Of a stretch of DNA of 32,000 nt, positions 1-30,555 are shown piece by piece. The stretch spans positions 600,001 to 632,000 of the forward strand of contig NC_010085.1 in assembly GCF_000018465.1 (NCBI RefSeq), written 5' to 3'. The notes beneath the pieces were generated by a model. The model saw only the letters and a list, made by a program, of their open reading frames with translations. It had not been told where the DNA came from and searched no databases. The DNA comes from Nitrosopumilus maritimus SCM1. GTDB lineage: Archaea; Thermoproteota; Nitrososphaeria; Nitrososphaerales; Nitrosopumilaceae. The translations under genes were made by a program, and so were the position numbers. How positions within the stretch are numbered: position 1 is the stretch's first letter; every line of letters begins with the position of its first letter.

Positions 1-146
1 GTTAAAAATAAAATTCAAATTATCAAATATGATGAAAAAAGAATAATTTGATATTTTATCATCTTTTCTATGTCTAGCCTGAACCCAATAAGAGATCTCA
101 CTTAATCTGCATTTTTATTAATGGAAGCATTAATTTTTCTATAAAT

Positions 147-2594
147 ATGATGTTTCATATGGACTGCTCAAATTTAGAAAATTTTTTTAGTTCCAAATCT
201 GATGTACTAAAATTTCTTTTTCACAAACTCAAAAAATCCACTATCGAAGAAATGATGTTTTTTTCTATTTATGAATGGGATAAAAATAAAGAGAAAATTT
301 TGTGTGAACTTTCTAACAACTTCCCCTCTGAATTAGTTATTGTTAGAAGCTCAGCAATGGGTGAGGATTCAATACAAAAATCTGAAGCTGGAAATTATTT
401 GAGTATCCAAAATGTAAATTCTTCATCAAAGAAACAACTAGAAAAATCAATCCAAAAAGTGATTAATTCTTATCACAAGAAAGGCAATTACAATAAAAAT
501 AATCAAATTTTAATTCAAAAACAATCCCTTGATATTATTACAAGTGGAGTTATTTTTTCAAAATCTCTCAATATTGGTTCACCTTATTATATCATAAATT
601 TTGATGATGGAACAAATACTGATAGTGTTACAAAAGGTGAAGTTGGAAATATCATAAAAATTTCTAGATTTTCAGCTTCTGTAAAAATTCCATTAAAATG
701 GAAAAAACTAATCAAATCTGTTCAAGAAATAGAGAAAATCTTAGGCACTGATTTACTTGATATCGAGTTTGGAATTAATATACATAAAGAAATTATTATT
801 TTTCAAGTACGTCCGCTTACCTCTACAAAATCCATCACGATAAAAAATTTTAATAATCATTTTCCAAAATTAATAGAAACTAACAAAAAATATTTTTCAA
901 AACTTCAAAAAAATCCCTCTCTGATTGGTAACAGAACAATTTTTTCTGATATGTCTGATTGGAATCCTGCAGAAATAATTGGCAGTAATCCGAATTTGTT
1001 AGATTATTCATTATATGATTATTTGATTATGAAAAATACTTGGAGTAAAAGTAGAGAAATGTTAGGTTACACCAAAGTGAAGACTAATTCTCTTATGGTA
1101 AAGTTTGGCCAAAAACCCTATGTTGATGTAAGATCAAGTTTCAATTCATTAATTCCTGCAAAAATCCCCAAAAAATTGAAATCCAAATTGATGGCTTATT
1201 ATATGAATAAAATCCAAAATTTCCCACATCTTCATGATAAAATTGAATTTGAAATTTTATTTTCTTGTTATGATCCGACAATAAAAAATCGACTAAATGA
1301 ATTACATAAATATAATTTTTCTAAAGAAGAAATTCATCAAATAGATCAATTGTTGAAAAAATTCACTGGAGATTTAATTGATAACTTTCCTAGTATTCTG
1401 AATGCTACACTTGATGCTATGAGACAATTAAAAGAGAATCGAGAGAAAAGTCTCAAAAGCTTAATTGATGTCAAATCACCTTCGAAAATTTTGAATACTC
1501 TTGAAAAATTGCTGAATGACTGTAGAAATATTGGTACTCTTTATTTCTCAATAATGGCTAGATTAGCCTTTGTTTCTTCAATAATTTTGAAAGGATTGGA
1601 AAAAAATGGAAATTTAGACTCAAAAATATTGGAAAACTTCATGAATACTTTACAAACCCCATTATCTGATATTCAACATGACCTAAATTCTTATGTAAAT
1701 GGAGATCTTTCAAGAAAACAATTTCTTGTAAAATATGGCCATTTGCGACCTGGAACTTATGATATTACTGCATCTCGTTACGATAAAGATAAAAATTTTT
1801 TCAATAATGTAAAATATCTTAAAAATGAAATTGACAAAATTTCTTTTAATGAATTTAAATTTAAAAAAATTTTTCAAAAACACATTCCTTTTGAATCTGA
1901 GAAATTCTTGTTTTTTATAAAAGAATCAATTTCTCAAAGAGAAAAAACAAAATTTGAATTTACCAAAAATTTGAGTTCGGTGATAGAATTAATTGCAATG
2001 TTGGGTAAATTGTATGGATTTAGTAGAGAAGATGTTTCCAATTTGAGTGTCGATTTTATTCTTAGAAACAAAAACAAAAACAAAAATGAAATTCGTAAAT
2101 TATGGACAAAAAATATCTTAAAAGAAAAAAATTCTAAATCATTAAAAAATTATTTATCCCTTCCACCACTTTTAACTCATGAAAATGACTTTGATGTTCA
2201 TGAACATTATATTTCTAAACCAAATTTTATTACATCTAAAAAAATCACTGCTGATATATATACAATAAAAAATTCCAAGAAATTTTTAGATGTTGAAAAC
2301 AAAATTGTTTTGATAGAAAATGCTGACCCAGGTTATGATTGGTTATTCACAAAAAATATTTCTGGATTAATTACAAAATATGGAGGTGTTGCATCTCATA
2401 TTGCTATAAGATGTGCTGAATTAGGACTTCCAGCTGCAATTGGTTGTGGTGATATTTTATTTGAACAGTTAGAAAATACTCAAAAAGTATTACTTGACTG
2501 TAAACATCATCAAATAATTATTTTGGAAAAAAATACCGAAGATAACTATTCTGAAGAAAAAAAACTCTTAAAATCTTTAGGTTACATAAAATAA
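147..2594 (+). CDS. PEP-utilising-enzyme family dikinase-type kinase (ATP-grasp plus C-terminal phosphohistidine swivel domain); candidate Cj1418-like L-glutamine kinase
   Basis: 815-aa ORF. The N-terminal 'VIVRSSAMGEDS...EAGNY' resembles the nucleotide-binding ATP-grasp domain of PEP synthase/PPDK. The extreme C-terminus 'GGVASHIAIRCAELGLPAAIGCG' (His751, codon 2397-2399) is the phosphohistidine swivel-domain motif. No PEP/pyruvate TIM-barrel follows the His domain, which is the architecture of small-molecule dikinases (rifampicin phosphotransferase, Cj1418) rather than PpsA. Confidence 0.8.
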   Translation: MMFHMDCSNLENFFSSKSDVLKFLFHKLKKSTIEEMMFFSIYEWDKNKEKILCELSNNFPSELVIVRSSAMGEDSIQKSEAGNYLSIQNVNSSSKKQLEKSIQKVINSYHKKGNYNKNNQILIQKQSLDIITSGVIFSKSLNIGSPYYIINFDDGTNTDSVTKGEVGNIIKISRFSASVKIPLKWKKLIKSVQEIEKILGTDLLDIEFGINIHKEIIIFQVRPLTSTKSITIKNFNNHFPKLIETNKKYFSKLQKNPSLIGNRTIFSDMSDWNPAEIIGSNPNLLDYSLYDYLIMKNTWSKSREMLGYTKVKTNSLMVKFGQKPYVDVRSSFNSLIPAKIPKKLKSKLMAYYMNKIQNFPHLHDKIEFEILFSCYDPTIKNRLNELHKYNFSKEEIHQIDQLLKKFTGDLIDNFPSILNATLDAMRQLKENREKSLKSLIDVKSPSKILNTLEKLLNDCRNIGTLYFSIMARLAFVSSIILKGLEKNGNLDSKILENFMNTLQTPLSDIQHDLNSYVNGDLSRKQFLVKYGHLRPGTYDITASRYDKDKNFFNNVKYLKNEIDKISFNEFKFKKIFQKHIPFESEKFLFFIKESISQREKTKFEFTKNLSSVIELIAMLGKLYGFSREDVSNLSVDFILRNKNKNKNEIRKLWTKNILKEKNSKSLKNYLSLPPLLTHENDFDVHEHYISKPNFITSKKITADIYTIKNSKKFLDVENKIVLIENADPGYDWLFTKNISGLITKYGGVASHIAIRCAELGLPAAIGCGDILFEQLENTQKVLLDCKHHQIIILEKNTEDNYSEEKKLLKSLGYIK

Positions 2595-2645
2595 TCCCTT
2601 TAGCCGATTGTAACTGTTTTATAATGAAAATTCTCTTTAAAAATA

Positions 2646-3284
2646 TTGGTAAAAAAAATTGGCATTACTTTACGTATTGAAACTATTCAGGAATATGATG
2701 AAAAACGAGATGCTTTAAGTCATGATTGGTTTGACTTTTTTCAAAAACTAAATTGTCTTCCAGTATTAATTCCAAATAAACTCCGTGAAGTTGAATCCTT
2801 TTTAGAAGAAATGGACTTAAATGGATTGATTCTTTCAGGCGGTGATAATATTGGAGACGATCCTGAACGTGATAAAACTGAAAAAAAAATTATGACTTTT
2901 GCGATGACTAATAATATTCCTCTATTGGGAGTCTGCAGAGGTATGCAAGTAATTAACCAATTCTTCAATGGTAAAATAATTTTTGATAATTCTAATATTC
3001 ATGTTGGGAAAAATCATGTAGTTGATATTATCGATACAAAATTTTCCAATTTTTTACAAACTAATACAATGAATGTAAATTCATTTCACCATAATTTGAT
3101 TGATAAATCTTCTTTGGGGAAAAATCTAATTCCATTTGCATTTTCTTCTATTGATCAAACAATTGAGGGCTTCTATCATGAAAATTCCCCTATTTTGGGA
3201 GTCATGTGGCATCCTGAACGTGTGAATTTGAATTCAAATCAAACTGAACTTGTAAACATGTTATACTGTGATAAAATTTGGTAA
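2646..3284 (+). CDS. Class I glutamine amidotransferase-fold / peptidase C26 gamma-glutamyl hydrolase; candidate Cj1417-like gamma-glutamyl-CDP-amidate hydrolase
   Basis: 212 aa with a TTG start. The nucleophile elbow is 'LLGVCRGMQVIN' (Cys97) and 'GVMWHPE' supplies His189/Glu191 of the triad. It lies 51 nt after the kinase and overlaps the next gene by 7 nt. Confidence 0.8.
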   Translation: MVKKIGITLRIETIQEYDEKRDALSHDWFDFFQKLNCLPVLIPNKLREVESFLEEMDLNGLILSGGDNIGDDPERDKTEKKIMTFAMTNNIPLLGVCRGMQVINQFFNGKIIFDNSNIHVGKNHVVDIIDTKFSNFLQTNTMNVNSFHHNLIDKSSLGKNLIPFAFSSIDQTIEGFYHENSPILGVMWHPERVNLNSNQTELVNMLYCDKIW

Positions 3285-4069
3285 AATTAATAATTTTAGG
3301 TGCTGGTGAAGGAACTAGATTAAGACCATTAACTCAAAATTGTCCAAAATGCATGGTGAATATTTTTGGTAAATCATTATTAGAACACCAAATTAATACT
3401 GCAAAAAACTGTGGAATTGATGAAATTATTATTGTTAAAGGATTTCTTGGATATATGATCCAAATCCCAAATATTCGTTATTATGAAAATAAATATTATG
3501 ATTCTACAAATATGGTTGAAACACTCTTTTGTGCTGAAAAAGAATTGAATGAATCTGTAATTGTATCTTATGGTGATATTATTTATCAAAAAAACATCTT
3601 GAAAAAATTAATTGATTCTCCTGATGATTTTTCAGTGGTTATAGATAAAAATTGGAAAAATTACTGGCAAATTCGTTTTTCAAATATTCTTGATGATGTT
3701 GAAAGTTTACGATTAAAAGATGGTTATATAATGGATATTGGGCAAAAACCCAACTCATTAGATAATATCGACGGTCAATACATTGGTTTGATGAAATTTC
3801 AACATAATGCATTATCTACTCTAAAGACTTTTTATCATAATTCAAAAGAACAATCAAAATTAGGAACAAATCCTCTCAATCCAAAAATCCCTTTTACAAA
3901 ATCATACATGACAGATTTGTTACAAGGCCTAATTCATAATGGACAAAACATCAAAGCAATTGAAATTAATGGTGGATGGTTGGAATTGGATACTTTGAAT
4001 GATTTTGAAATTTATCAAAAACTATATGCTCAAAACTCATTAAAAGAATTTTTTAATTTGGAGAGTTGA
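3278..4069 (+). CDS. LicC-like nucleotidyltransferase (cytidylyltransferase family); candidate Cj1416-like CTP:phosphoglutamine cytidylyltransferase
   Basis: 263 aa. The N-terminal 'LIILGAGEGTRLRPLT' is the G-x-G-T-R NTP-transferase signature, and the C-terminal 'GGWLELDTLNDFE' is typical of LicC-type enzymes. It overlaps the upstream gene and is 1 nt from the downstream gene. Confidence 0.8.
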   Translation: MVKLIILGAGEGTRLRPLTQNCPKCMVNIFGKSLLEHQINTAKNCGIDEIIIVKGFLGYMIQIPNIRYYENKYYDSTNMVETLFCAEKELNESVIVSYGDIIYQKNILKKLIDSPDDFSVVIDKNWKNYWQIRFSNILDDVESLRLKDGYIMDIGQKPNSLDNIDGQYIGLMKFQHNALSTLKTFYHNSKEQSKLGTNPLNPKIPFTKSYMTDLLQGLIHNGQNIKAIEINGGWLELDTLNDFEIYQKLYAQNSLKEFFNLES

Positions 4070-4070
4070 A

Positions 4071-5186
4071 TTGAAGCCTAACATTATTTTTGTATTATTA
4101 GACGGTGCACGGTGGGATCGTATAGAAAATTCATTTGAATTTTCAGATTTAAGAAAAGATGGAATTTTTATAAATAATGTTTCAACTGTTTTTCCATACA
4201 CTTCTGGTTCACTAAATGTAATTTTTTCAGGACAATTTGGTAAAGAGAATGGTGTAGATGGCTATTACAAAGTATTGAAGTTAAAAAATTCCATACAAAT
4301 TTTGCCTGAGATTCTTCAAAATTATGGATATTTTACTGCTCGGGGGTTACTTAATGATAAATTATTGTCTCCTAGAGGATATGATCTTCGAACTGTTCAT
4401 AATGAATTTGAAGATGATCTAAATGACATTCATCCAAAATTAATTAATGATGTATTTCAAAAGGCAAATGGAAAACCTGTTTTTCTTTTTTTACATTTTA
4501 CTCGTATCCATACATTTACGGTTTCTGAAATTTTAGATAAATATGACTGGAACGATAAGACCTTTTATGATTTAGTAAATTCCAATCTTAAGAAATATGA
4601 TCAAACAATTGATGAAGCTGGGCATTATGCCAAAAAAATCACCAATACAATCAAGATTCTTGGAGAAGAGGAAAACACAATAATTATTTTCTTTTCAGAT
4701 CATGGTACTGGTGTTGGAGAAAGATATGGTGAACGAAGCTATGGTTCATTTACGTATGAAGAAACAATTAGAACTTTTTATCTTTTCACAGGGTCACTTC
4801 TTCTAAAAAATAAATTTTCTGACAAATTAAGAAGTACTTTGGATATAATGCCTACTATCCTTGAATTGTGTAAAATAGATGAAAATCTGAATCTCTTTGG
4901 AAAAAGCTTTGCAGGATTTCTCACTGGAGAAACAACTCATCTTAGTGAAAACCCATTTACTTTTTCTGAAACTGGTGCATTAGAAGGTCCATTCCCTTCT
5001 CCTGAGCATTCTAATGTTTTTTGTATTAAAACATCTAATTATAAATTAATTTATTATGTTTCTAACAATTCTTGGGAATTATTTGATTTGCAAAAAGATT
5101 TCCATGAAAAAAATAATTTGATAGGAACTTTACCATTAATTGAAGATGATTTAAAACAAAAACTCTTGAATTGGATAAATCGTTAA
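4071..5186 (+). CDS. Alkaline-phosphatase-superfamily (sulfatase-like) enzyme, cytoplasmic, Thr-type nucleophile (probably a phosphotransferase or phosphodiesterase, not a true sulfatase)
   Basis: 371 aa. Metal ligands are 'FVLLDGARWD' (Asp11) and 'FFSDHGTGVGE'. The position of the sulfatase C/S-x-P-x-R formylglycine motif reads 'PYTSGSLNVIFSG' (Cys->Thr, Pro->Gly, Arg->Leu). No signal peptide or TM segment is present. Confidence 0.7.
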   Translation: MKPNIIFVLLDGARWDRIENSFEFSDLRKDGIFINNVSTVFPYTSGSLNVIFSGQFGKENGVDGYYKVLKLKNSIQILPEILQNYGYFTARGLLNDKLLSPRGYDLRTVHNEFEDDLNDIHPKLINDVFQKANGKPVFLFLHFTRIHTFTVSEILDKYDWNDKTFYDLVNSNLKKYDQTIDEAGHYAKKITNTIKILGEEENTIIIFFSDHGTGVGERYGERSYGSFTYEETIRTFYLFTGSLLLKNKFSDKLRSTLDIMPTILELCKIDENLNLFGKSFAGFLTGETTHLSENPFTFSETGALEGPFPSPEHSNVFCIKTSNYKLIYYVSNNSWELFDLQKDFHEKNNLIGTLPLIEDDLKQKLLNWINR

Positions 5187-5260
5187 ACTCCCACTTTAAA
5201 ACTATAAAATAATTTTCTGTATTTGATTCATTGATTATTATACCAATAAAATCATCAATT

Positions 5261-6412
5261 TTATTTTTTTTTTAATAATTTAATTATGTATTCAGTTCCT
5301 ACTATCACTGATTTTCCAATGTTAAAAACTGTTTCATCACGATTATTTCTTATTTGATTTTTAATTGATTCTTGATTTGTGTATATCTCTTCAATTTTTT
5401 TTGGAATAGTTTCTAACTCTGTTGTTGGCACAATTATTCCAATTTTATTCCTAATACTTTCTTCAATTGGTATTTGTGAAATATCTTTAAAGTTAGGATT
5501 GCGCATTTTTTTTGGTGTATCGATATACATTACTGGTTTTTCAAAACCAAATGCAAATTCTAATGCAACACCTGACCAATCTGAAATCATAATATCTGAT
5601 TGTAAAAATGAATCAAAATACGATATATTTTGCTCTAAGAAAAAATTAGAATTTTTTGAAAATGTTTTTAAAATATGTTCAACTTTCTTTTTTGATTTTT
5701 TTTGTGTCATTGGATGAATGCGAAGAATTACTTTATATCCTGAATTTAATAATATGTTGATTATTTTTTCAGAAACTGTTTCAAATAACCCATCTTTTCC
5801 CCATGATGGTGCAATTATAATTTGATATGAATCTTTTTGTTTTAAAGTTATGTCTGTATTTTTTGAATGTATTTTTAGTAGATTATCTAAATGTGTATAT
5901 CCAAATTGAACTAATTTTTTTGCTTTTAAATTATATAGTTTCTCTGCTTCTTTTATTTCATTAATCTGATAATTTCCTACACAAAAAATAGAATCAAAAT
6001 AATCAAAGGCTTCTTTTCTGTATCCTAAATGTGTACTGATCATTGAATGAAACATGTAGATGTAGTGCACATTATGCATTTTTGATCTTTTAATATGAAA
6101 TGCTTCTAGATCTGGCATGGTCATAATCAAAATATTTGCCTGTAGTTCTAAGAAAAATTTTGTTCTAGCAACCCCTTCTCCAACATAAAATGCTTTAATT
6201 TTTTTATTTTTTGAAATTATGTCTAATTCTTCTTTACTAGATGTAACATAACAAATACTTACATCATAATTTTTAATTAATTCATCAATAAATGATTCAA
6301 AAATAATTGTTGAGTTTTTGTCTTCTGAATAGAAAACAATTTGTTTTTCTGCTATATCTAAATTTGAAAATTCTTTTAGATCGGTCGATTCATTTTTAGA
6401 AAAAAAACCCAA
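5261..6412 (-). CDS. TagB/TagF-family CDP-glycerol glycerophosphotransferase-like enzyme
   Basis: 383 aa with a TTG start. Family blocks are 'IIIAPSWGKDG' (cf. YAPTWR), 'ILRIHPMTQKK' (catalytic His region) and 'FLQSDIMISDWSGVALEFAFGFEKPVMYID' (cf. LITDYSSv.fDf...KPiif). Confidence 0.8.
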   Translation of the reverse strand: MGFFSKNESTDLKEFSNLDIAEKQIVFYSEDKNSTIIFESFIDELIKNYDVSICYVTSSKEELDIISKNKKIKAFYVGEGVARTKFFLELQANILIMTMPDLEAFHIKRSKMHNVHYIYMFHSMISTHLGYRKEAFDYFDSIFCVGNYQINEIKEAEKLYNLKAKKLVQFGYTHLDNLLKIHSKNTDITLKQKDSYQIIIAPSWGKDGLFETVSEKIINILLNSGYKVILRIHPMTQKKSKKKVEHILKTFSKNSNFFLEQNISYFDSFLQSDIMISDWSGVALEFAFGFEKPVMYIDTPKKMRNPNFKDISQIPIEESIRNKIGIIVPTTELETIPKKIEEIYTNQESIKNQIRNNRDETVFNIGKSVIVGTEYIIKLLKKK

Positions 6413-6587
6413 ATTAATTATCTTATATCACTGCTGTTAATTAGTATTAGTCTTAACTAAACCGAAAAAATTTATAATGTTTCTTCCATGAATATGTGTT
6501 GATTTTTAAAAGATTCATTTTGCTTACTGCTCAATTTTTTATCTGTACTGTATCAAAACATCATAAATATAATTAATTTGCCTAAAT

Positions 6588-8129
6588 ATGGTCTCTTTGT
6601 TTTCTGAACCTATTTCAAAATTCCCTTTTCATCCATTTTTAATTGGATTTTTTTTCGTTATTTCATTATTTTATAATAATATACGTGTACTAAATTTTGA
6701 CGAAATCCTAATTCCTCTAATTATTGTACTTGGAATCATTACAAGTATTTGGATTTTGATAAATCTTATTGTAAAAAATAATTTAAAATCCTCCCTTATT
6801 TTATCTCTAGTTTTAATTTTATTTTTTTCTTATGGACATATTTATCTAGAAATTGATCATTTCACTATAAATGAATTTGATATAGGGAAGCATCGATTTC
6901 TTTTAATTCCATTTTTTTCTATGTTTATTTTAGGAACTATTTTACTAATTCGAACGAAGAAAATATTAGATAATACTACATTAATTACTAATACCATTTT
7001 TTTAGTTTTAGTAGTTATAGTGTTAGTTAATATTCAATTATATTATTTTGAAAACCCTTCTTATTTTTATCTCAATCAAAACATTGAATCAAATACAATT
7101 TCAAATAATATAAACACATTTCCAAATATTTATTTCATCGTACTTGATGGCTATCCTGGATATCGTAGTCTTGAACTATCGCATCAAAATGATGGTGAAT
7201 TTTTTAATTATTTTAAAAATAATGGGTTTTTTGTTTCTGAAAATAGTTTTAGTAATTATCAAGTTACGCATTTATCTGTTCCCTCTACATTGAATTTAGA
7301 TTATCTCCATCCTCTTGCAGAAATTAAAGATGGTGTTTATGATCAACGTGATTTTCATTTATTAGGAAATGATAACAAGTTGATGAACTTTTTAAAATCT
7401 AACGGATATCTAATTGTTAATTTTGATTCTAGTTGGAGTTTTTCAAGAGACATGAAGCATGCTGATCTACAACTTTGTGGTGATAATCAATTTTTAAATT
7501 CTGAATTCCTAATTATGTTAACAAAAACTAGTATGCTAAATCCTGTTTATACAAAAGCCTTTGAAAATGATCTAGTTGAACTAAGACTTTGTGCATTTGA
7601 CCAAATACTAGATATTGATAAACGTGTATCGGAACCTTTTTTTGTTTTCTCTCATATGTATATGCCCCATCCTCCTTACTTATTTGGTCCTAATGGAGAA
7701 ATTTTATCTCCTGATGAATTAGATTTAATTGCATATTCACCTGAAAAACAGTCTGCATATTTTGATCAAGTCAAATTTCTTAATAAAAAAATCCCTCAAA
7801 TTGTAAATAATTTACTCGATTCTGAAAATCCTCCAATAATAGTAATACAATCTGATCATGGTTCGGCATTTTTAATGGGTGAAGACGACACAAATTGGAA
7901 ACATCCTGACAATAACATGCTTCTTGAACGAATGAATATAATCAATTTTATTTATTTGCCTGATTCTCCTGATATTCTTTATGATGAAATTACTCCTGTC
8001 AACACATTTCGAATCATACTTAATCATTACTTTGGAACTAATTTTGAAATACTAAATGATAATTCATATATTTTTAATGGCACTGATTTTGAGGATGTTA
8101 CTATCAAACTGAAAAATATAGAAAATTAG
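6588..8129 (+). CDS. Polytopic membrane protein with C-terminal alkaline-phosphatase-superfamily domain (LtaS/EptA-like architecture)
   Basis: 513 aa. About 5 hydrophobic segments occupy the first ~160 aa, followed by 'IYFIVLDGYPGY' (metal-binding Asp) and 'IIVIQSDHGSAF'. No C/S-x-P-x-R sulfatase motif was seen. Confidence 0.65.
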   Translation: MVSLFSEPISKFPFHPFLIGFFFVISLFYNNIRVLNFDEILIPLIIVLGIITSIWILINLIVKNNLKSSLILSLVLILFFSYGHIYLEIDHFTINEFDIGKHRFLLIPFFSMFILGTILLIRTKKILDNTTLITNTIFLVLVVIVLVNIQLYYFENPSYFYLNQNIESNTISNNINTFPNIYFIVLDGYPGYRSLELSHQNDGEFFNYFKNNGFFVSENSFSNYQVTHLSVPSTLNLDYLHPLAEIKDGVYDQRDFHLLGNDNKLMNFLKSNGYLIVNFDSSWSFSRDMKHADLQLCGDNQFLNSEFLIMLTKTSMLNPVYTKAFENDLVELRLCAFDQILDIDKRVSEPFFVFSHMYMPHPPYLFGPNGEILSPDELDLIAYSPEKQSAYFDQVKFLNKKIPQIVNNLLDSENPPIIVIQSDHGSAFLMGEDDTNWKHPDNNMLLERMNIINFIYLPDSPDILYDEITPVNTFRIILNHYFGTNFEILNDNSYIFNGTDFEDVTIKLKNIEN

Positions 8130-8180
8130 ACTATAATTTAGACTTCAATATGTTTAGGAAGATGTTTTTAGATCTAATTC

Positions 8181-8897
8181 ATGATTTCACATATACATTC
8201 TCCTAACTTTAATATAATTAGCAAATTTTTGCAAAACAGAAATCAATTGCTAGTAATTTTTGATGTTGAAGGTGTTTTGTATGATGAAGAATATCTTCCA
8301 ATCCTTGCAGAGAAACTCAATAAACAAGATGAGATTTGGGCAATTACAAAACAAGGAATTCAAGGAAAAATTAACTGGGAAGAAGGACTTCGAACTAGAG
8401 TTGCTGCTCTAAAGGGCCTTGATGAAAAAACATGTCAAGAAGTTTCTGATGCATTACCCATTATGACTGGTGCAAAAGAAGCATGTAGAGCATTAAAAGC
8501 TGCTGGTTGGAAGTTGATGGCTGTTTCAGGCGGATTTACACTGATGATGGAGAGATTAAAAGACGAATTGGGATTAGATTATGTTTATTCCAATGAATTA
8601 ATTTTCAAAGACGGAAAACTGGATGGCGTAAAAATCAATGTTGATTCAGACAAATCAAAATCTGCACGAATTAAAATTGAAGAATGGGGAGAAAAGAAAG
8701 AGAATATTGTATGTGTTGTAGATGGCGCAAACGATGTAAAATTATTTGATATTTGTGGATTGGGAATCGCATATCGTGCACAAGACTTGGTAAAAGATTT
8801 GGCAACCACAACTCTGGAAGAAAAGGATCTTTCAAAAATTTTGGATATTATTAACAAACATTACAAATTAGAATTAGAATCTCCAACTCCTGCATAA
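8181..8897 (+). CDS. serB: Phosphoserine phosphatase (HAD superfamily, SerB type)
   Basis: 238 aa, collinear by eye with the Methanocaldococcus PSP layout: motif I 'VIFDVEGVL', 'AVSGGFTLMMERLKDELGLDYVYSNELIFKDGKLDG', and 'VVDGANDVKLF'. Motif I is D-x-E rather than D-x-D. Confidence 0.8.
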   Translation: MISHIHSPNFNIISKFLQNRNQLLVIFDVEGVLYDEEYLPILAEKLNKQDEIWAITKQGIQGKINWEEGLRTRVAALKGLDEKTCQEVSDALPIMTGAKEACRALKAAGWKLMAVSGGFTLMMERLKDELGLDYVYSNELIFKDGKLDGVKINVDSDKSKSARIKIEEWGEKKENIVCVVDGANDVKLFDICGLGIAYRAQDLVKDLATTTLEEKDLSKILDIINKHYKLELESPTPA

Positions 8898-20353: not shown

Positions 20354-21481
20354 TTAAGAAATTTCGTTTCTAAGTTTTTTGGTAATTGTAACTTCAATGT
20401 TATCAAATACTACTAACATCTTTTCTTTATTCTCTTCAAAGTAATCGTTTCCTCTATCTTTTAGTCTAATTTTCCATAATCTGATTTCTCTATGTTCATC
20501 AAAGAAATTTTCAATCATGTGTTCGCCTGATTTTTTTGGATCAATAAATTCTTCAAATATCTCTATTGCCTTTTCTGCATTTTCTTCTTCAATTGCCTCT
20601 TTTGCAATTTGAATTGCTTGACTCAATTCTTTTAGATTCTTTACTGGCTTTGGTAACTTCTTTCTTGTAATTCCAAACAATCCTTTCTTCTCTTTGCCCA
20701 TTTTCTCTGCAACATTTGGTGCAAGATCATAGACTGGAATTCTACTTAGACCGTCTCTCTTTTCGTTTTTAACAATCAATCCTTTCTCTAATAATTTTCT
20801 TAATGCATCTTCTGCATCTTTCTTATCTAGAAATGTTGTCCATACTATTGAACCAATTGTGTGATACCCTTGTCTAACTGATTCTAAAACAACTACTTCT
20901 TGAATTCTTTTGAATCCTTCTTCAACTCTGACATTAACAAAATCTTTATCTCTAATTGATTTTCTTGCATTCTTTACATCAATTTCAATTGAACGTTTCA
21001 ATGATTCCAATGATTCTGGAACTTGATTTAGTAATGATAAGAAACATGCCTTGTTGTACCAAGCCATTCCGTATGTTGGATCAGTTTCAATTGCTTTTTC
21101 AACTGAGTCAAGAGCTTTAGAATAATTTTTTTGCTCATAATGTACTAATCCCTTTAGATTCCAAGCCTCTGGATTTGTAACATCAATGTCTAAAATTTTA
21201 TCATATACTCTTAGTGCTTCGTGATGATCATCAAGATGGAACCTTGCATAACCTAATTTCAGTAATGTTTCAACGTTATCTGGATCTATTCTTAGTGCTT
21301 GCTCAAAAACTGTAATGGCCTCTTCGAGTTTTTCATCTGCCATGAGATTAACTCCTTTCTTAAAGAGTCTCTTTCGATTGTAATCAACATCTACTAATGA
21401 TGTCTCTTTGGACACTTTCTCTACTTTAGGTTCTTCTTCTTTTTCCTCTGATTTTTTTCCGAAAGGTTTCTTCACTAGCAC
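20354..21481 (-). CDS. TPR-repeat protein with uncharacterised C-terminal half
   Basis: 375 aa. At least four 34-aa TPR units span res ~50-190 ('EEAITVFEQALRIDPDN', 'HEALRVYDKILDIDVTN', 'PEAWNLKG...YSKALDSVEKAIETDP', 'GMAWYNKA'). It has a GTG start, and its stop abuts the rhodanese stop. Confidence 0.7.
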   Translation of the reverse strand: MLVKKPFGKKSEEKEEEPKVEKVSKETSLVDVDYNRKRLFKKGVNLMADEKLEEAITVFEQALRIDPDNVETLLKLGYARFHLDDHHEALRVYDKILDIDVTNPEAWNLKGLVHYEQKNYSKALDSVEKAIETDPTYGMAWYNKACFLSLLNQVPESLESLKRSIEIDVKNARKSIRDKDFVNVRVEEGFKRIQEVVVLESVRQGYHTIGSIVWTTFLDKKDAEDALRKLLEKGLIVKNEKRDGLSRIPVYDLAPNVAEKMGKEKKGLFGITRKKLPKPVKNLKELSQAIQIAKEAIEEENAEKAIEIFEEFIDPKKSGEHMIENFFDEHREIRLWKIRLKDRGNDYFEENKEKMLVVFDNIEVTITKKLRNEIS

Positions 21482-21595
21482 AAAATGCTGTTTTATCTAG
21501 ATAAATACTATCCTTCGTGAGCCTAAAAAATAATTCAATTCCTACTCTAATCATGCGATCTAAATACAGAAATACTTGAAGTATAAACAATCGTT

Positions 21596-23224
21596 GTGTC
21601 GTCTCAATCTAGATTAGAAATCCAAGGTCAGGCACCATTCAAGCAATCTGGCGTCTATGAGGCTCAAATTGCAATCGTTGGCAGCCGACCTTCTGATGCA
21701 CAAATTAAATCTAAACAATTCACATCTCTTTGGCGTGGAAATTTCCATCTACGAGTTAAAGATGGAGTATTTTCTGAAACAATTGGTTCTCCTGAAAACC
21801 CAATTCCATCATCTGTCTTAGAATTAGAAACAATTTGGATAGTTGTAACTGATCTGTTTTCATCACTACATTCTGTATTTGATGTCCCATTATCAAAACC
21901 AAAATCTTCCCCAAAACCTCCTGAATCAAAACCTTCTGAAACTAAATCAAATCTTGAAACTCCAAAACAAACACGTTCAACAAAATCAACTCAAAGCACT
22001 CCTGGCGTACGAGGTAGCCCTGGTGAAAAAGGCGCACCTGGATTACAAGGTCCAACTGGTGACAAAGGTCCACAAGGTCCTCCCGGCCCAACTGGTCCTC
22101 CCGGTGACAAAGGTCCTGACGGTCCACAAGGTCCTCCCGGTGACAAAGGTCCAACTGGTGACAAAGGCCCTGCAGGTGACAAAGGTATTGCTGGAGATAA
22201 AGGAATTACTGGTGACAAAGGAATTACTGGAGATAAAGGTGATAAAGGTGACAAAGGAATTCCTGGTCCCGTTGGTGATAAAGGTGACAAAGGAGCAACT
22301 GGTCCAATCGGAGAAAAAGGTCCAACTGGATTAAAAGGCCCAATCGGTGAAAAAGGAGAAAAAGGTCCAACTGGTCCTCCCGGCGACAAAGGATTATCTG
22401 GATTAAAAGGTCCTCCCGGTGAAAAAGGAGAAAAAGGTCCAACTGGTCCTCCCGGCGATAAAGGTTTAACTGGTCCTGTCGGAACTCCTGGAGAAAAAGG
22501 TCCAACCGGACAAGCAGGAGTTCAAGGAGAAAAAGGAATTCAAGGTGGTCCTGGTCCAATCGGAGAAAAAGGTCCAGCAGGTCCAGTTGGTGACAAAGGT
22601 CCAATCGGTCCAGCAGGTCCTCTTGGCGACAAAGGATTATCTGGTCCAACCGGAGTTCCTGGTGACAAAGGTCCAATCGGTCCTCCTGGTCCAATCGGAG
22701 AAAAAGGTCCTAAAGGAACTGAAGGTCCAATCGGAGAAAAAGGTCCACAAGGTCCACAAGGTCCAGCTGGTGCTAAAGGATTAACAGGCGTTCCTGGTCC
22801 ACAAGGTGAAAAAGGAGAAAAAGGTCCAACAGGTCCGCCCGGAGAAAAAGGATTAACAGGTCCAGCAGGTCCACCTGGAGAAATTGGTACAGTTGGTCCA
22901 CAAGGTTCTCAAGGAGAACGCGGTCCAACAGGTCCATCAGGAGAAAAAGGTCCACAAGGTCCACAAGGAATTCAAGGTCCGCAAGGAGAACGCGGCCCAA
23001 CTGGTCCAATCGGTTCTATTGGTGAAGCAGGTCCTCGTGGAGAACAAGGCCCATTAGGTCCAGCAGGACCAAGAGGTCCACCCGGTCCACCAGGCGAAAA
23101 AGGTCCATCAGGTGGAATGTCTTCTGAACAAAAAGCATTGTTCAAAGAATTGCTAGAAATACTAACTGAGAAAAATATCATTAGCACTGAAGAACAAATC
23201 AAACTAATGAGTTATCTTTACTAG
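21596..23224 (+). CDS. Collagen-like (Gly-X-Y triple-helix repeat) protein
   Basis: 542 aa with a GTG start. It comprises a ~100-aa N-terminal domain, an S/T/P/K-rich linker, 123 uninterrupted G-X-Y triplets (hand count) and a 36-aa helical tail, '[37 protein letters not shown]'. No signal peptide or TM segment was seen. Confidence 0.85.
22004..23110 (+). repeat. Coding 9-nt (G-X-Y) periodic repeat region, 123 triplets
   Basis: Runs from 'GVRGSPGEK' to 'GEKGPS' with Gly at every third residue and no interruption. It includes an exact 41-nt repeat at 22346-22386 and 22418-22458 ([14 protein letters not shown]). The region leaves many alternative and antisense frames open. Confidence 0.9.
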
Positions 23225-23267
23225 TTTTTTAAAATAATTTTTTAAAAATTTTTCTTACAAATTTTTT
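23225..23267 (+). terminator. Cluster of oligo-T tracts (archaeal-type terminator) after the collagen-like gene
   Basis: T6 at 23225-23230 immediately follows the TAG stop. Further tracts are T6 at 23238-23243, T5 at 23249-23253 and T6 at 23262-23267. Confidence 0.5.
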
Positions 23268-23320
23268 ATTCAAAAATATTTTCGAATAGTTTTCACTAAT
23301 CTGTTTTAGAAAAATGGAAA

Positions 23321-23359: not shown

Positions 23360-23740
23360 TTATCTTCGTCTTTTTGCTGCTTTTCTCTTTGGAGCGGCTT
23401 TGCGTTTTGCTGCTGCCTTTCTCTTTGGAGCTGCTTTTTTAGCTGCAGTCTTTCTTTTTGCTGCTTTTCTCTTTGGAGCGGCTTTGCGTTTTGCTGCTGC
23501 CTTTCTCTTTGGAGCTGCTTTTTTAGCTGCAGTCTTTCTTTTTGCTGCTTTTCTCTTTGGAGCGGCTTTGCGTTTTGCTGCTGCCTTTCTCTTTGGAGCT
23601 GATTTTTTAGCTGCAGTCTTTCTTTTAGCGGCCTTTCTCTTTGGAGCTGCTTTTCTCTTTGGAGCTGCTTTGCGTTTTGCTGCTGCTTTTCTCTTTGGAG
23701 CTGCTTTTCTCTTTGGAGCGGCTTTTCGTTTAGCTGCCAT
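23360..23740 (-). CDS. Extremely basic Ala/Lys/Arg/Pro repeat protein (histone H1 C-terminal-tail-like / AlgP-like low-complexity polycation)
   Basis: 126 aa, 'MAAKRKAAPKRKAAPKRKAAAKRK...KRRR', built of 6-aa PKRKAA-type units organised into three 28-aa units. This frame was chosen over the overlapping 154-aa frame because its third codon positions are mostly A/T, matching the rest of the window, against roughly half G/C in the other frame. Confidence 0.6.
   Translation of the reverse strand: MAAKRKAAPKRKAAPKRKAAAKRKAAPKRKAAPKRKAAKRKTAAKKSAPKRKAAAKRKAAPKRKAAKRKTAAKKAAPKRKAAAKRKAAPKRKAAKRKTAAKKAAPKRKAAAKRKAAPKRKAAKRRR
23377..23628. repeat. Tandem 84-bp repeat x3 (two copies identical)
   Basis: 23377-23460 and 23461-23544 are identical base for base. 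23545-23628 differs at a few positions (e.g. 'gctgat' for 'gctgct', and its 3' end). The repeat lies inside the basic protein CDS, and 84 bp equals 28 codons. Confidence 0.9.
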
Positions 23741-30213: not shown

Positions 30214-30555
30214 TTATCCGCTTGGTCTGGCGCTTCCTACTTCGCCTTTCTTTTGGAATTTTCTGTATTCACCTATTACTCCACTACATTTTTCACAGAC
30301 ATATTGCCCTCTTTCAATTAAGATCAAATTGTCTGCAACTTCTTCATTAGGACTTTCTTCTAACTGAATTTTTGGTGGATTATCAAATTCTGTTTCACAA
30401 TTATTACAATAGTGTTTGAGCATTTTTTCAGTTTCAATTTTTCCAATTGGAGCCAAAAATAATTTTCCAACACCTAGATCTGCTTTTTTAGCTTGCTCAT
30501 CAGTAAGGTCTGCAATAACATATCCTCCAGAACCTTGAACTTTTAATTCTGCCAT
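30214..30555 (-). CDS. Hypothetical zinc-ribbon protein
   Basis: 113 aa. 'CNNC' (res 50-53) and 'CEKC' (res 87-90) form a ribbon-type pair. Confidence 0.5.
   Translation of the reverse strand: MAELKVQGSGGYVIADLTDEQAKKADLGVGKLFLAPIGKIETEKMLKHYCNNCETEFDNPPKIQLEESPNEEVADNLILIERGQYVCEKCSGVIGEYRKFQKKGEVGSARPSG

Follow-up and report, generated by a model that had tools for sequence, protein, structure and literature searches.

A length-constrained collagen-like protein conserved in Nitrosopumilaceae, a candidate intracellular rod

In the current study we examined a collagen-like gene located in a 32,000-nucleotide stretch of the Nitrosopumilus maritimus SCM1 chromosome (NCBI RefSeq assembly GCF_000018465.1, contig NC_010085.1, positions 600,001 to 632,000 of the forward strand), the whole of which is referred to as the window and supplies all coordinates below unless another contig is named. 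The gene (21596–23224, plus strand) is complete and encodes a protein of 542 amino acid (aa) residues, of about 53 kDa and with a pI of 8.6, in which a globular head, a basic linker, 123 uninterrupted G-X-Y triplets and a short helical tail follow each other from the N- to the C-terminus. We propose, with a probability of roughly 0.55 for the statement as a whole, that this protein forms a C-terminally nucleated homotrimeric rod of about 105 nm which acts as an intracellular spacer, tether or scaffold, and we consider it highly probable from its sequence that it represents a genuine triple-helical structural protein. The architecture of the protein, its conservation, the purifying selection acting upon it, the maintenance of its glycine register and the modelled monomer folds of its head and tail are established in this study.

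The open reading frame (ORF) had been delineated in a preceding reading of the DNA letters and their translated frames (the original prediction), with which the ORF listing agrees. It opens with GTG and closes with TAG and, since an in-frame TAA lies 12 nt (four codons) 5' of the GTG, the N-terminus of the protein cannot extend further. A mechanical count found glycine at every third residue from 137 to 508 (nt 22004–23119), i.e. a single run of 124 triplets; as the last of these, G-G-M, forms part of the tail, the 123 triplets originally counted by hand (residues 137–505, 22004–23110) proved correct, as did the 33 G-(D/E)-K triplets (17 GDK and 16 GEK) and the identity of two 41-nt copies at 22346–22386 and 22418–22458. 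These copies, spaced 72 nt apart (22346–22458) and encoding one 14-residue sequence twice, lie inside a tandem array with a 72-nt period (22274–22500). The Pfam collagen model (PF01391) matches the protein with E=7.8e-61 and 202.2 bits against a cut-off of 27.2, thereby passing the gathering threshold, and 123 consecutive in-register glycines cannot be explained by chance. The Pfam score and the register retained in all 59 complete orthologues described below identify a genuine collagen-like protein, as had been claimed, rather than low-complexity noise. The protein contains no cysteine. Overall GC climbs locally to 0.51 across the collagen region, a peak arising from the first two positions of the Gly and Pro codons only, because GC at third codon positions (GC3) stays low (0.137 in the collagen codons vs 0.162 in the N-terminal part). 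This host-like GC3 and the vertical inheritance of the gene bear out the earlier view that the DNA is host-adapted and not a recent import. Antisense and out-of-frame ORFs over 21879–23202 were considered as genes and rejected, since they mirror the repeated Gly/Pro codons in shifted frames.

A genome scan employing one genome per GTDB species located at least 160 loci, of which 80 were retrieved for analysis. All 80 are from Nitrosopumilaceae, namely Nitrosopumilus, Nitrosarchaeum or related metagenome-assembled genomes (MAGs), the top-matching locus (98% identity) being on the complete chromosome of a Nitrosopumilus MAG, and the collagen-like gene is single-copy and present in every genome examined. 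It resides in a block of about ten genes with the order Thi4, sulfite/nitrite reductase, rhodanese, TPR protein (minus strand), collagen-like protein (plus strand), a basic repeat protein, DRG GTPase (minus strand), HAD and ArgRS, which is conserved throughout the 80 loci and also in more distant thaumarchaeal contigs; the remaining genes of the window are ordinary housekeeping genes. We conclude that, as judged from these comparisons, the collagen-like gene forms part of the core gene set of the Nitrosopumilaceae and has been inherited vertically. The arrangement of head, linker, collagen run and the same tail is retained even in the distant proteins P0150 (333 aa, approximately 61 triplets) and P0402 (approximately 75 triplets).

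The gene was complete in 59 of the 80 loci; the others hit a contig end inside the repeat, apart from one that is masked, and 19 of the 80 stop within the collagen run itself (e.g. L005, L007, L012 and L014). Protein searches gave the same picture, as the N-terminal 136 residues retrieved 104 proteins, each of at most 228 aa and many labelled 'collagen-like protein, partial', and the C-terminal 52 residues retrieved 41 fragments of at most 89 aa each. Every N-terminal match with a source name derives from Nitrosopumilus, Nitrosarchaeum or Nitrosopumilaceae. Short-read assemblies evidently almost always break inside this gene, and the family is for that reason mostly annotated as partial and under-counted in databases. 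A search with the full-length protein was not used, as it was dominated by unrelated animal, phage and bacterial collagens and left the true orthologues unranked. The original prediction held collagen-like proteins to be rarely reported in archaea, which is true of the literature, where we found no study of this archaeal family (our survey of all archaea not being exhaustive), but not of the databases, since NCBI already names the family 'collagen-like protein' in Nitrosopumilus MAGs.

The coding sequence is under purifying selection. Across about 870–1570 orthologue pairs, retained at dS 0.05–1.5 and with a mean dS of about 0.75–0.9, dN/dS ranged from 0.07 to 0.17 (head 0.14, the C-terminal 147 collagen codons 0.16, tail 0.07), from which we conclude that the gene is real and constrained along its whole length, as far as codon comparisons can tell. 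Orthologues with frequent frame disruptions, which the original prediction regarded as a sign of a non-functional repeat, were looked for with a negative result, as 59 of 59 complete copies hold a single unbroken run of 90–162 triplets. Frameshifted metagenome products (P0018, P0061 and P0047) were considered as instances of decay and rejected, each tracing to contig ends or to one locus, L086 (3001–4648 of a 1.73-Mb long-read MAG chromosome). In the latter, a single +1 frameshift in the repeat of an otherwise intact gene, which is probably a sequencing error, led the gene caller to report two separate products, one of 200 aa and one of 367 aa.

The composition of the run follows the positional preferences of the triple helix, with proline and acidic residues favoured at X, and Gln, Thr and basic residues at Y. 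Among the 123 X positions there are 56 Pro (45%), 21 Glu and 17 Asp, and among the Y positions 37 Lys, 18 Pro (15%), 17 Thr and 15 Gln; acidic residues number 38 at X vs 2 at Y and basic residues 0 at X vs 42 at Y, a partition that recurs family-wide, where the X:Y counts are 2073:133 (acidic) and 7:2377 (basic). The original prediction attributed stability to charge pairs, citing the 33 G-(D/E)-K triplets. That count stands; among stabilising charge motifs, however, the one that is best documented and directly backed by experiment is the KGE/KGD sequence spanning Yaa-Gly-Xaa (PMC11923368), and this motif is rarer than in shuffled triplets. Its reported share of triplets is 3–6% for collagen-like proteins and 13% for viruses (PMC11923368); here the six occurrences in 122 steps (4.9%) fall within the typical 3–6%, with a family mean of 4.8%. 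The G[DE]K triplets are usually followed by GP, and the commonest steps from Y across Gly to the next X are KGP, TGP and QGP, the last two being unusually frequent in archaeal collagen-like proteins (PMC11923368). Rod stability would, to judge from this composition, derive mainly from the 20% proline and from acid/base pairing within triplets or laterally. The non-glycine positions are also conserved one by one in the 59 complete orthologues (identity of at least 0.89 at residues 376–405 and 0.98 at 451–465), and such conserved X/Y patches suggest binding sites or lateral self-association of the rod.

Collagen rises by 0.286 nm per residue, so that the 369 residues of the run would, as a triple helix, span about 105 nm. 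The 59 complete orthologues fall into classes of 90 (one protein), 108–111 (15), 114–119 (three), 120–125 (34), 138–145 (five) and 162 triplets (one). Each indel relative to the window copy was a multiple of three residues in the 20 of these 59 orthologues that were inspected, with hot spots near residues 160 and 187 and especially at 325–355. The earlier suggestion, prompted by the 41-nt repeat, that triplet number can vary is thus upheld, as relatives differ by in-register indels; in one locus (L053) the 72 absent residues begin at the 72-nt-period array that holds this repeat. The class of about 110 triplets represents one clade and not convergence, because the same three deletions are common to it throughout. 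Within each class the length spreads over only about 2 triplets at a mean pairwise dS of about 0.75–0.9, and the holding of length despite this divergence and despite DNA that is highly repetitive and prone to slippage argues, at the level of sequence comparison, for stabilising selection on rod length.

At its C-terminus the rod reads GPRGPPGPP (residues 491–499, 23066–23092, plus strand), which comprises the most helix-stabilising triplets of the run, followed by GEKGPSGG, and residues 496–510 show an identity of 0.93 across the 59 orthologues. The tail adjoining it (residues 506–542, 23111–23221, plus strand), which ends in ...IKLMSYLY, is the most conserved part of the entire protein, being nearly invariant over about 35 aa; K513, T531, Q534, I535, L537, L541 and Y542 are invariant among 41 C-terminal fragments. 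AlphaFold2, supplied with 41 sequences, modelled the tail as a helix (510–525), a loop and a second helix (531–539) with pLDDT values of 96–98 across both helices. The amphipathic C-terminal helix of the original prediction was therefore right in so far as the C-terminus is helical, and wrong in that the model shows a helix-loop-helix hairpin and not one helix. Searches of the tail against Pfam (E up to 10) returned nothing credible and those of its fold against the PDB no significant match. Collagens nucleate at the C-terminus and fold from C to N (PMC11923368), and by analogy with these we propose GPRGPPGPP as a putative nucleation clamp; the tail, from its modelled fold, is proposed to be a trimerisation and registration domain.

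At the opposite end, the ~100-aa globular domain and the S/T/P/K linker foreseen from the sequence are both supported, the former by AlphaFold2 and the latter by composition. With 95 sequences, AlphaFold2 modelled the head (residues 1–100, 21596–21895, plus strand) as a beta-sandwich of approximately seven strands (pLDDT 88.1, pTM 0.80; strands listed at 7–12, 19–28, 46–55, 58–63, 79–86 and 92–98), and 17 columns are invariant among these sequences. No credible match was found in Pfam (E up to 10), a head profile run against PDB sequences matched collagen columns only, and Foldseek comparisons of the fold yielded nothing significant, whether in the PDB (best 5fce, E=0.25, TM 0.49) or in BFVD (best E=6e-3, TM 0.32). 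We conclude that the head, as modelled, is a previously undescribed domain family. The linker that follows (residues 101–136, 21896–22003, plus strand) is basic (pI 10.1) and S/T/P/K-rich, varies in length and sequence, and appears disordered, with AlphaFold2 pLDDT values below 50 from residue 103 onwards; no other part of the protein is so weakly conserved (identity 0.23–0.42), with ETKP-type repeats often present in orthologues and a recurrent [ST]PKPKR[ST]xK motif approximately 10 residues ahead of the first collagen glycine.

The head was also identified outside collagen proteins. In an exhaustive head profile search the alignment carried collagen tails and most of the 11,355 matches were to G-X-Y sequence, and matches were consequently used only if they covered positions 1–115, which left P0285, P0288 and short fragments. 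P0288 (1767 aa, encoded at 8001–13304 of L081 on a 2.47-Mb contig) combines the head and a basic linker with TPR repeats, an SF1 helicase (DUF4011/AAA_11/AAA_12) and a nuclease (MTES_1575). P0285 (982 aa, encoded at 8001–10949 of L082) possesses a signal peptide, InlB-B-repeat-like ectodomains and one transmembrane segment followed by RKTKKEK and a tail of approximately 400 aa, in which a head homologue (687–815) lies between two similar helical segments. On this sequence evidence, the head is a mobile module that occurs beyond collagen proteins. The P0288 gene is surrounded by IS66, IS4 and IS630-type transposases.

Employing these elements, the assembly of the protein may be envisaged as follows. 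The invariant 35-residue helix-loop-helix would register three chains by forming a six-helix bundle, the adjoining GPRGPPGPP clamp would nucleate the triple helix, and zipping from C to N over the 123 unbroken triplets would generate the rod of approximately 105 nm. Hydroxyproline would not be needed, as the ~20% proline, mostly at X, and some 35 triplets that pair an acidic residue at X with a basic one at Y could stabilise it. The far end would carry three flexible basic linkers, each with a 100-aa beta-sandwich head that may dock onto a partner, and the rod would work as a fixed-length spacer, tether or scaffold, most likely inside the cell or else, having reached it by an unknown route, at the envelope. 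We infer the trimerisation, the triple helix, the folding direction, the location and the spacer function from the features described above.

Concerning location, Sec, Tat and class III/pilin-type signals are all missing from the protein, as are transmembrane segments and a C-terminal sorting signal, and its highest 19-residue Kyte-Doolittle mean (1.28) lies inside the beta-sandwich head. This agrees with the original prediction of a protein devoid of signal peptide or hydrophobic N-terminus, the N-terminus being fixed by both the upstream stop codon and conservation. N-X-S/T sequons are absent from 46 of the 59 complete orthologues. The helicase-nuclease fusion P0288 is certainly cytoplasmic and the head-containing tail of P0285 is predicted to be so by the positive-inside rule, and the occurrence of the head in these two settings favours an intracellular location. 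Several points weigh against the intracellular rod. The argument from other head architectures draws on two proteins, one of which (P0285) is placed by the positive-inside rule. To our knowledge, all characterised prokaryotic collagen-like proteins are located on a cell, spore or virion surface, and linkers rich in S/T/P typically belong to extracellular stalks. The KGE and KGD pairs are rarer than expected (six observed vs 11.2 ± 2.4 in a triplet shuffle), and expression data specific to the collagen-like gene were not found in the literature. A more specific form of the proposal, namely that a cytoplasmic rod of fixed length (approximately 95–106 nm, roughly the cell radius) serves as a cytoskeletal spacer or ruler docked via its head and tail, is put forward tentatively and is, taken by itself, rather unlikely to be correct; cell shape or width and the positioning of the nucleoid or envelope would be examples of what such a ruler could govern, and are offered in the same speculative spirit.

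The foremost alternative, which we regard as doubtful though possible, is that of a cell-surface fibre or adhesin, a 'hairy nap' or S-layer spacer in the manner of Scl, BclA or Lcl, reaching the surface by non-classical export. The surface reading, in the equally doubtful details attached to it, would have the linker O-glycosylated and the head bound to an external ligand or to the S-layer. It gains from the surface exposure of all characterised prokaryotic collagen-like proteins known to us, from the S/T/P/K-rich linker and from the top, albeit weak, structural match of the head (5fce, TM 0.49, E=0.25), which is to the domain with which the enterococcal adhesin SgrA binds its ligand. It is opposed by the failure to find export or anchor signals behind a fixed N-terminus, by the near-absence of sequons, by the presence of the head in a helicase-nuclease fusion and a predicted cytoplasmic tail, and by our knowing of no description of a 100-nm nap on Nitrosopumilus cells. 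The NCBIfam models of the surface proteins Lcl, SclB and SclA are the best matches of the protein, but they align with the G-X-Y part only and score far under their cut-offs (Lcl, NF046116, 203 bits vs 500; Scl1 and Scl2, NF038330 and NF038329, 192 vs 400 and 198 vs 325). A 2026 study of 'Ca. Nitrosotenuis chungbukensis', from a related genus, reports a highly expressed 'LPXTG-anchored collagen-like adhesin' that was detected in the proteome, and discusses this adhesin as S-layer-associated (PMC13037477). The adhesin may be an orthologue that was named from such sub-threshold NCBIfam Lcl/SclB/SclA matches.

Comparison with known systems likewise yields partial likenesses, and the archaeal protein shows none of the family-specific features of Scl, BclA, Lcl or phage fibres that were examined. 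It shares with streptococcal Scl1/Scl2 a hydroxyproline-free, charge-rich G-X-Y sequence and, as proposed here, a homotrimeric rod, a flanking trimerisation domain and the 'lollipop' shape. Scl proteins, however, possess a signal peptide, an N-terminal helical V trimeriser and an LPXTG anchor, whereas the archaeal protein has no signal or anchor, bears a beta-sandwich head and has its proposed trimeriser at the C-terminus; the collagen part of Scl is also shorter, at about 50–80 triplets. The likeness to BclA extends to the lack of a classical signal peptide, to proposed cytoplasmic assembly and a proposed C-terminal trimeriser, and to a strain-variable number of triplets that sets filament length. 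BclA is a spore-attached protein with mainly GPT repeats, glycosylated at Thr, and a C1q/TNF-like beta jelly-roll C-terminal domain of approximately 130 aa. The archaeal protein, in contrast, ends in a 35-aa helical hairpin, contains GPT in only 11 of its 123 triplets (GDK and GEK together make up 33) and belongs to an organism with no spore. The BclA analogy drawn in the original prediction is a poor one, that protein being a GPT-rich, glycosylated collagen. Legionella Lcl and Burkholderia Bucl resemble it as prokaryotic collagen-like proteins of strain-variable repeat number, but they are secreted or reside in the outer membrane, and the domains flanking their repeats are unrelated. Collectins, C1q-type proteins and engineered foldon-collagen fusions offer a parallel for a short C-terminal helical element that immediately follows the final triplet and registers three chains ahead of C-to-N zipping (PMC11923368), and also for globular heads at one end of a rigid spacer. 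Collectin heads are, however, C-terminal to the neck, and the proteins are secreted and hydroxylated, whereas the archaeal heads are N-terminal; there is no sequence or fold relationship between the two.

A role as nucleoid or nucleic-acid tether, in which the basic linker, through S/T-P-K-K-like motifs (TPKPKRS), binds AT-rich DNA and the rod spaces or bundles chromatin, is in our estimation improbable, and the same applies to its possible cooperation with the adjacent histone-H1-like K/A/P repeat protein. The linker pI of 10.1, its recurrent [ST]PKPKR[ST]xK motif, the fusion of the head to an SF1 helicase-nuclease in P0288 and the retention of an extremely basic convergent neighbour in its slot in at least 17 loci are in keeping with such a role. 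This evidence is purely circumstantial, and it is countered by the drift of the linker, the least conserved part of the protein (identity 0.23–0.42), by the uninformative nature of adjacency in a wholly syntenic block, and by Pfam and NCBIfam searches in which no recognised DNA-binding domain was found. The neighbour in question is a convergent basic Lys/Ala/Pro repeat ORF (23360–23740, minus strand, 126 aa, MAAKRKAAPKRKAAPKRKAAAKRK...) with AAPKRKAA repeats that resembles a histone-H1 tail. Its DNA consists of an 84-nt unit present 3.4 times at 97% identity (23369–23727), it has no Pfam or NCBIfam match, and tblastn places it between the collagen-like and DRG genes in at least 17 loci. The corresponding slot of locus L085 holds another basic repeat (TTGTKRKTTTKRR), which identifies the basic frame as the conserved one of three overlapping ORFs.

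It is very improbable that the run is a non-helical, disordered Gly/Pro/charged sequence or a decaying repeat that mimics collagen periodicity. The lack of KGE/KGD enrichment would suit this view, which has to contend with unbroken in-register glycines in 59 of 59 complete orthologues, whole-triplet indels in the 20 inspected, a strict X/Y partition, position-wise conservation of up to 0.98 and a dN/dS of 0.16. Such register constraint is foreign to disordered linkers, and the protein's own linker drifts freely. We regard as least probable of all that a fibre gene of a virus or provirus, similar to collagen-like tail fibres or to those of spindle viruses, was domesticated. Collagen repeats are common in phage fibres and several collagen-only search matches were tail-fibre proteins, but the housekeeping context is the same in all 80 loci, GC3 is host-like, the window proteins scanned include no viral genes, a search of 2.9 million viral contigs turned up no relatives of the head and its fold has no significant BFVD match.

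The gene on the other side of the collagen-like gene encodes a divergently oriented TPR protein (20354–21481, minus strand, 375 aa) that matches Pfam TPR_1 with E=3e-24, the repeats occupying residues ~36–190. It adjoins the collagen-like gene in 79 of 80 loci, an adjacency that is uninformative because the whole block is syntenic. The original prediction had raised, as speculation, a link between this neighbour and collagen prolyl hydroxylase, which we could not sustain, given that the protein yielded TPR-type matches only and no 2OG-Fe(II) oxygenase or prolyl 4-hydroxylase (P4H) domain, and that the adjacency is part of a conserved block. Nor was a 2OG-Fe(II) oxygenase found among the 28 larger ORFs of the window, the smaller ORFs at 30214–30555 and beyond being unscanned. 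The fusion of head and TPR in P0288 provides a weak 'Rosetta-stone' hint of a connection at the sequence level, the similarity of its TPR part to the neighbour being generic (28%). In L085 a co-directional TPR-collagen pair, set in a seemingly rearranged neighbourhood, was considered as a functional link and rejected, as it reflects an inverted duplication in which the 5' part of the collagen-like gene occurs twice, inverted, around a truncated TPR gene (3519–5611); the most likely cause is fold-back chimerism of a long-read contig. Identity to the window proteins in the L085 lineage amounts to 69% for the TPR protein and to only 40% for the head, which argues against tight co-evolution. Residues ~190–375 of the TPR protein match no family and include a segment, VVLESVRQGYHTIGSIVWTTFL...KGLIVKNEKR, that is highly conserved between lineages; a very weak MIT-like match (E=0.0013 over 19 residues) was noted in this C-terminal half.

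The regions that flank the collagen-like gene carry candidate control elements. Immediately 5' of the start codon, a 41-nt block (21555–21595, plus strand; gcgaTCTAAATAcagaaatacttgaa...) comprising a BRE/TATA-like element, gcgaTCTAAATAcag, and a short leader is near-invariant in 79 species-level orthologous loci, the remaining intergenic DNA diverging. The TATA-like element is centred approximately 33 nt 5' of the GTG, and the block is probably an archaeal BRE/TATA promoter with a very short transcript leader or none. The start codon is GTG in 67 of the 79 loci and ATG in 11, and the near-invariant block together with the retained GTG suggests tightly constrained initiation of transcription or translation. 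A T-rich, AT-only stretch (23225–23282, plus strand; TTTTTTAAAATAATTTTTTAAAAATTTTTC...) immediately 3' of the TAG stop codon is likely an archaeal oligo-T terminator common to the convergent gene. An Rfam scan of the whole window found no RNA families. Elsewhere in the window, GC falls to 0.23–0.28 across positions 1–8200, which hold genes for a PEP-utilising enzyme, an amidotransferase, a nucleotidyl transferase, a sulfatase and a CDP-glycerol glycerophosphotransferase (5261–6412, minus strand) and a 513-aa ORF without a Pfam match (6588–8129). From its gene content this region looks like a variable surface-glycan island beside the conserved core block.

Collagen repeats in archaea, and their annotation as 'collagen-like protein', were already known. 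What this study adds is that the gene is a core gene, held to a constrained length and conserved in all Nitrosopumilaceae examined, whose product bears no export signal, has a head and a tail that are both previously undescribed, and is placed by some of the evidence in the cytoplasm. For designers of recombinant collagen, a hydroxyproline-free sequence with 369 unbroken collagen residues and a natural registration tag of 35 aa may be of interest, and the protein is a concrete, expressible target whichever location proves to be correct. If it acts on the surface, an unknown export route is implied, along with an S-layer, hitherto regarded as smooth, that bears a fibre of approximately 100 nm. 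If it is intracellular, collagen joins the list of prokaryotic cytoskeletal materials and, should the ruler hypothesis be true, this would represent the first structural collagen inside a free-living prokaryotic cell, and that of one of the ocean's most abundant organisms. Few marine cells are as numerous as Nitrosopumilus-type archaea, and what gives them their shape and internal order is poorly understood.

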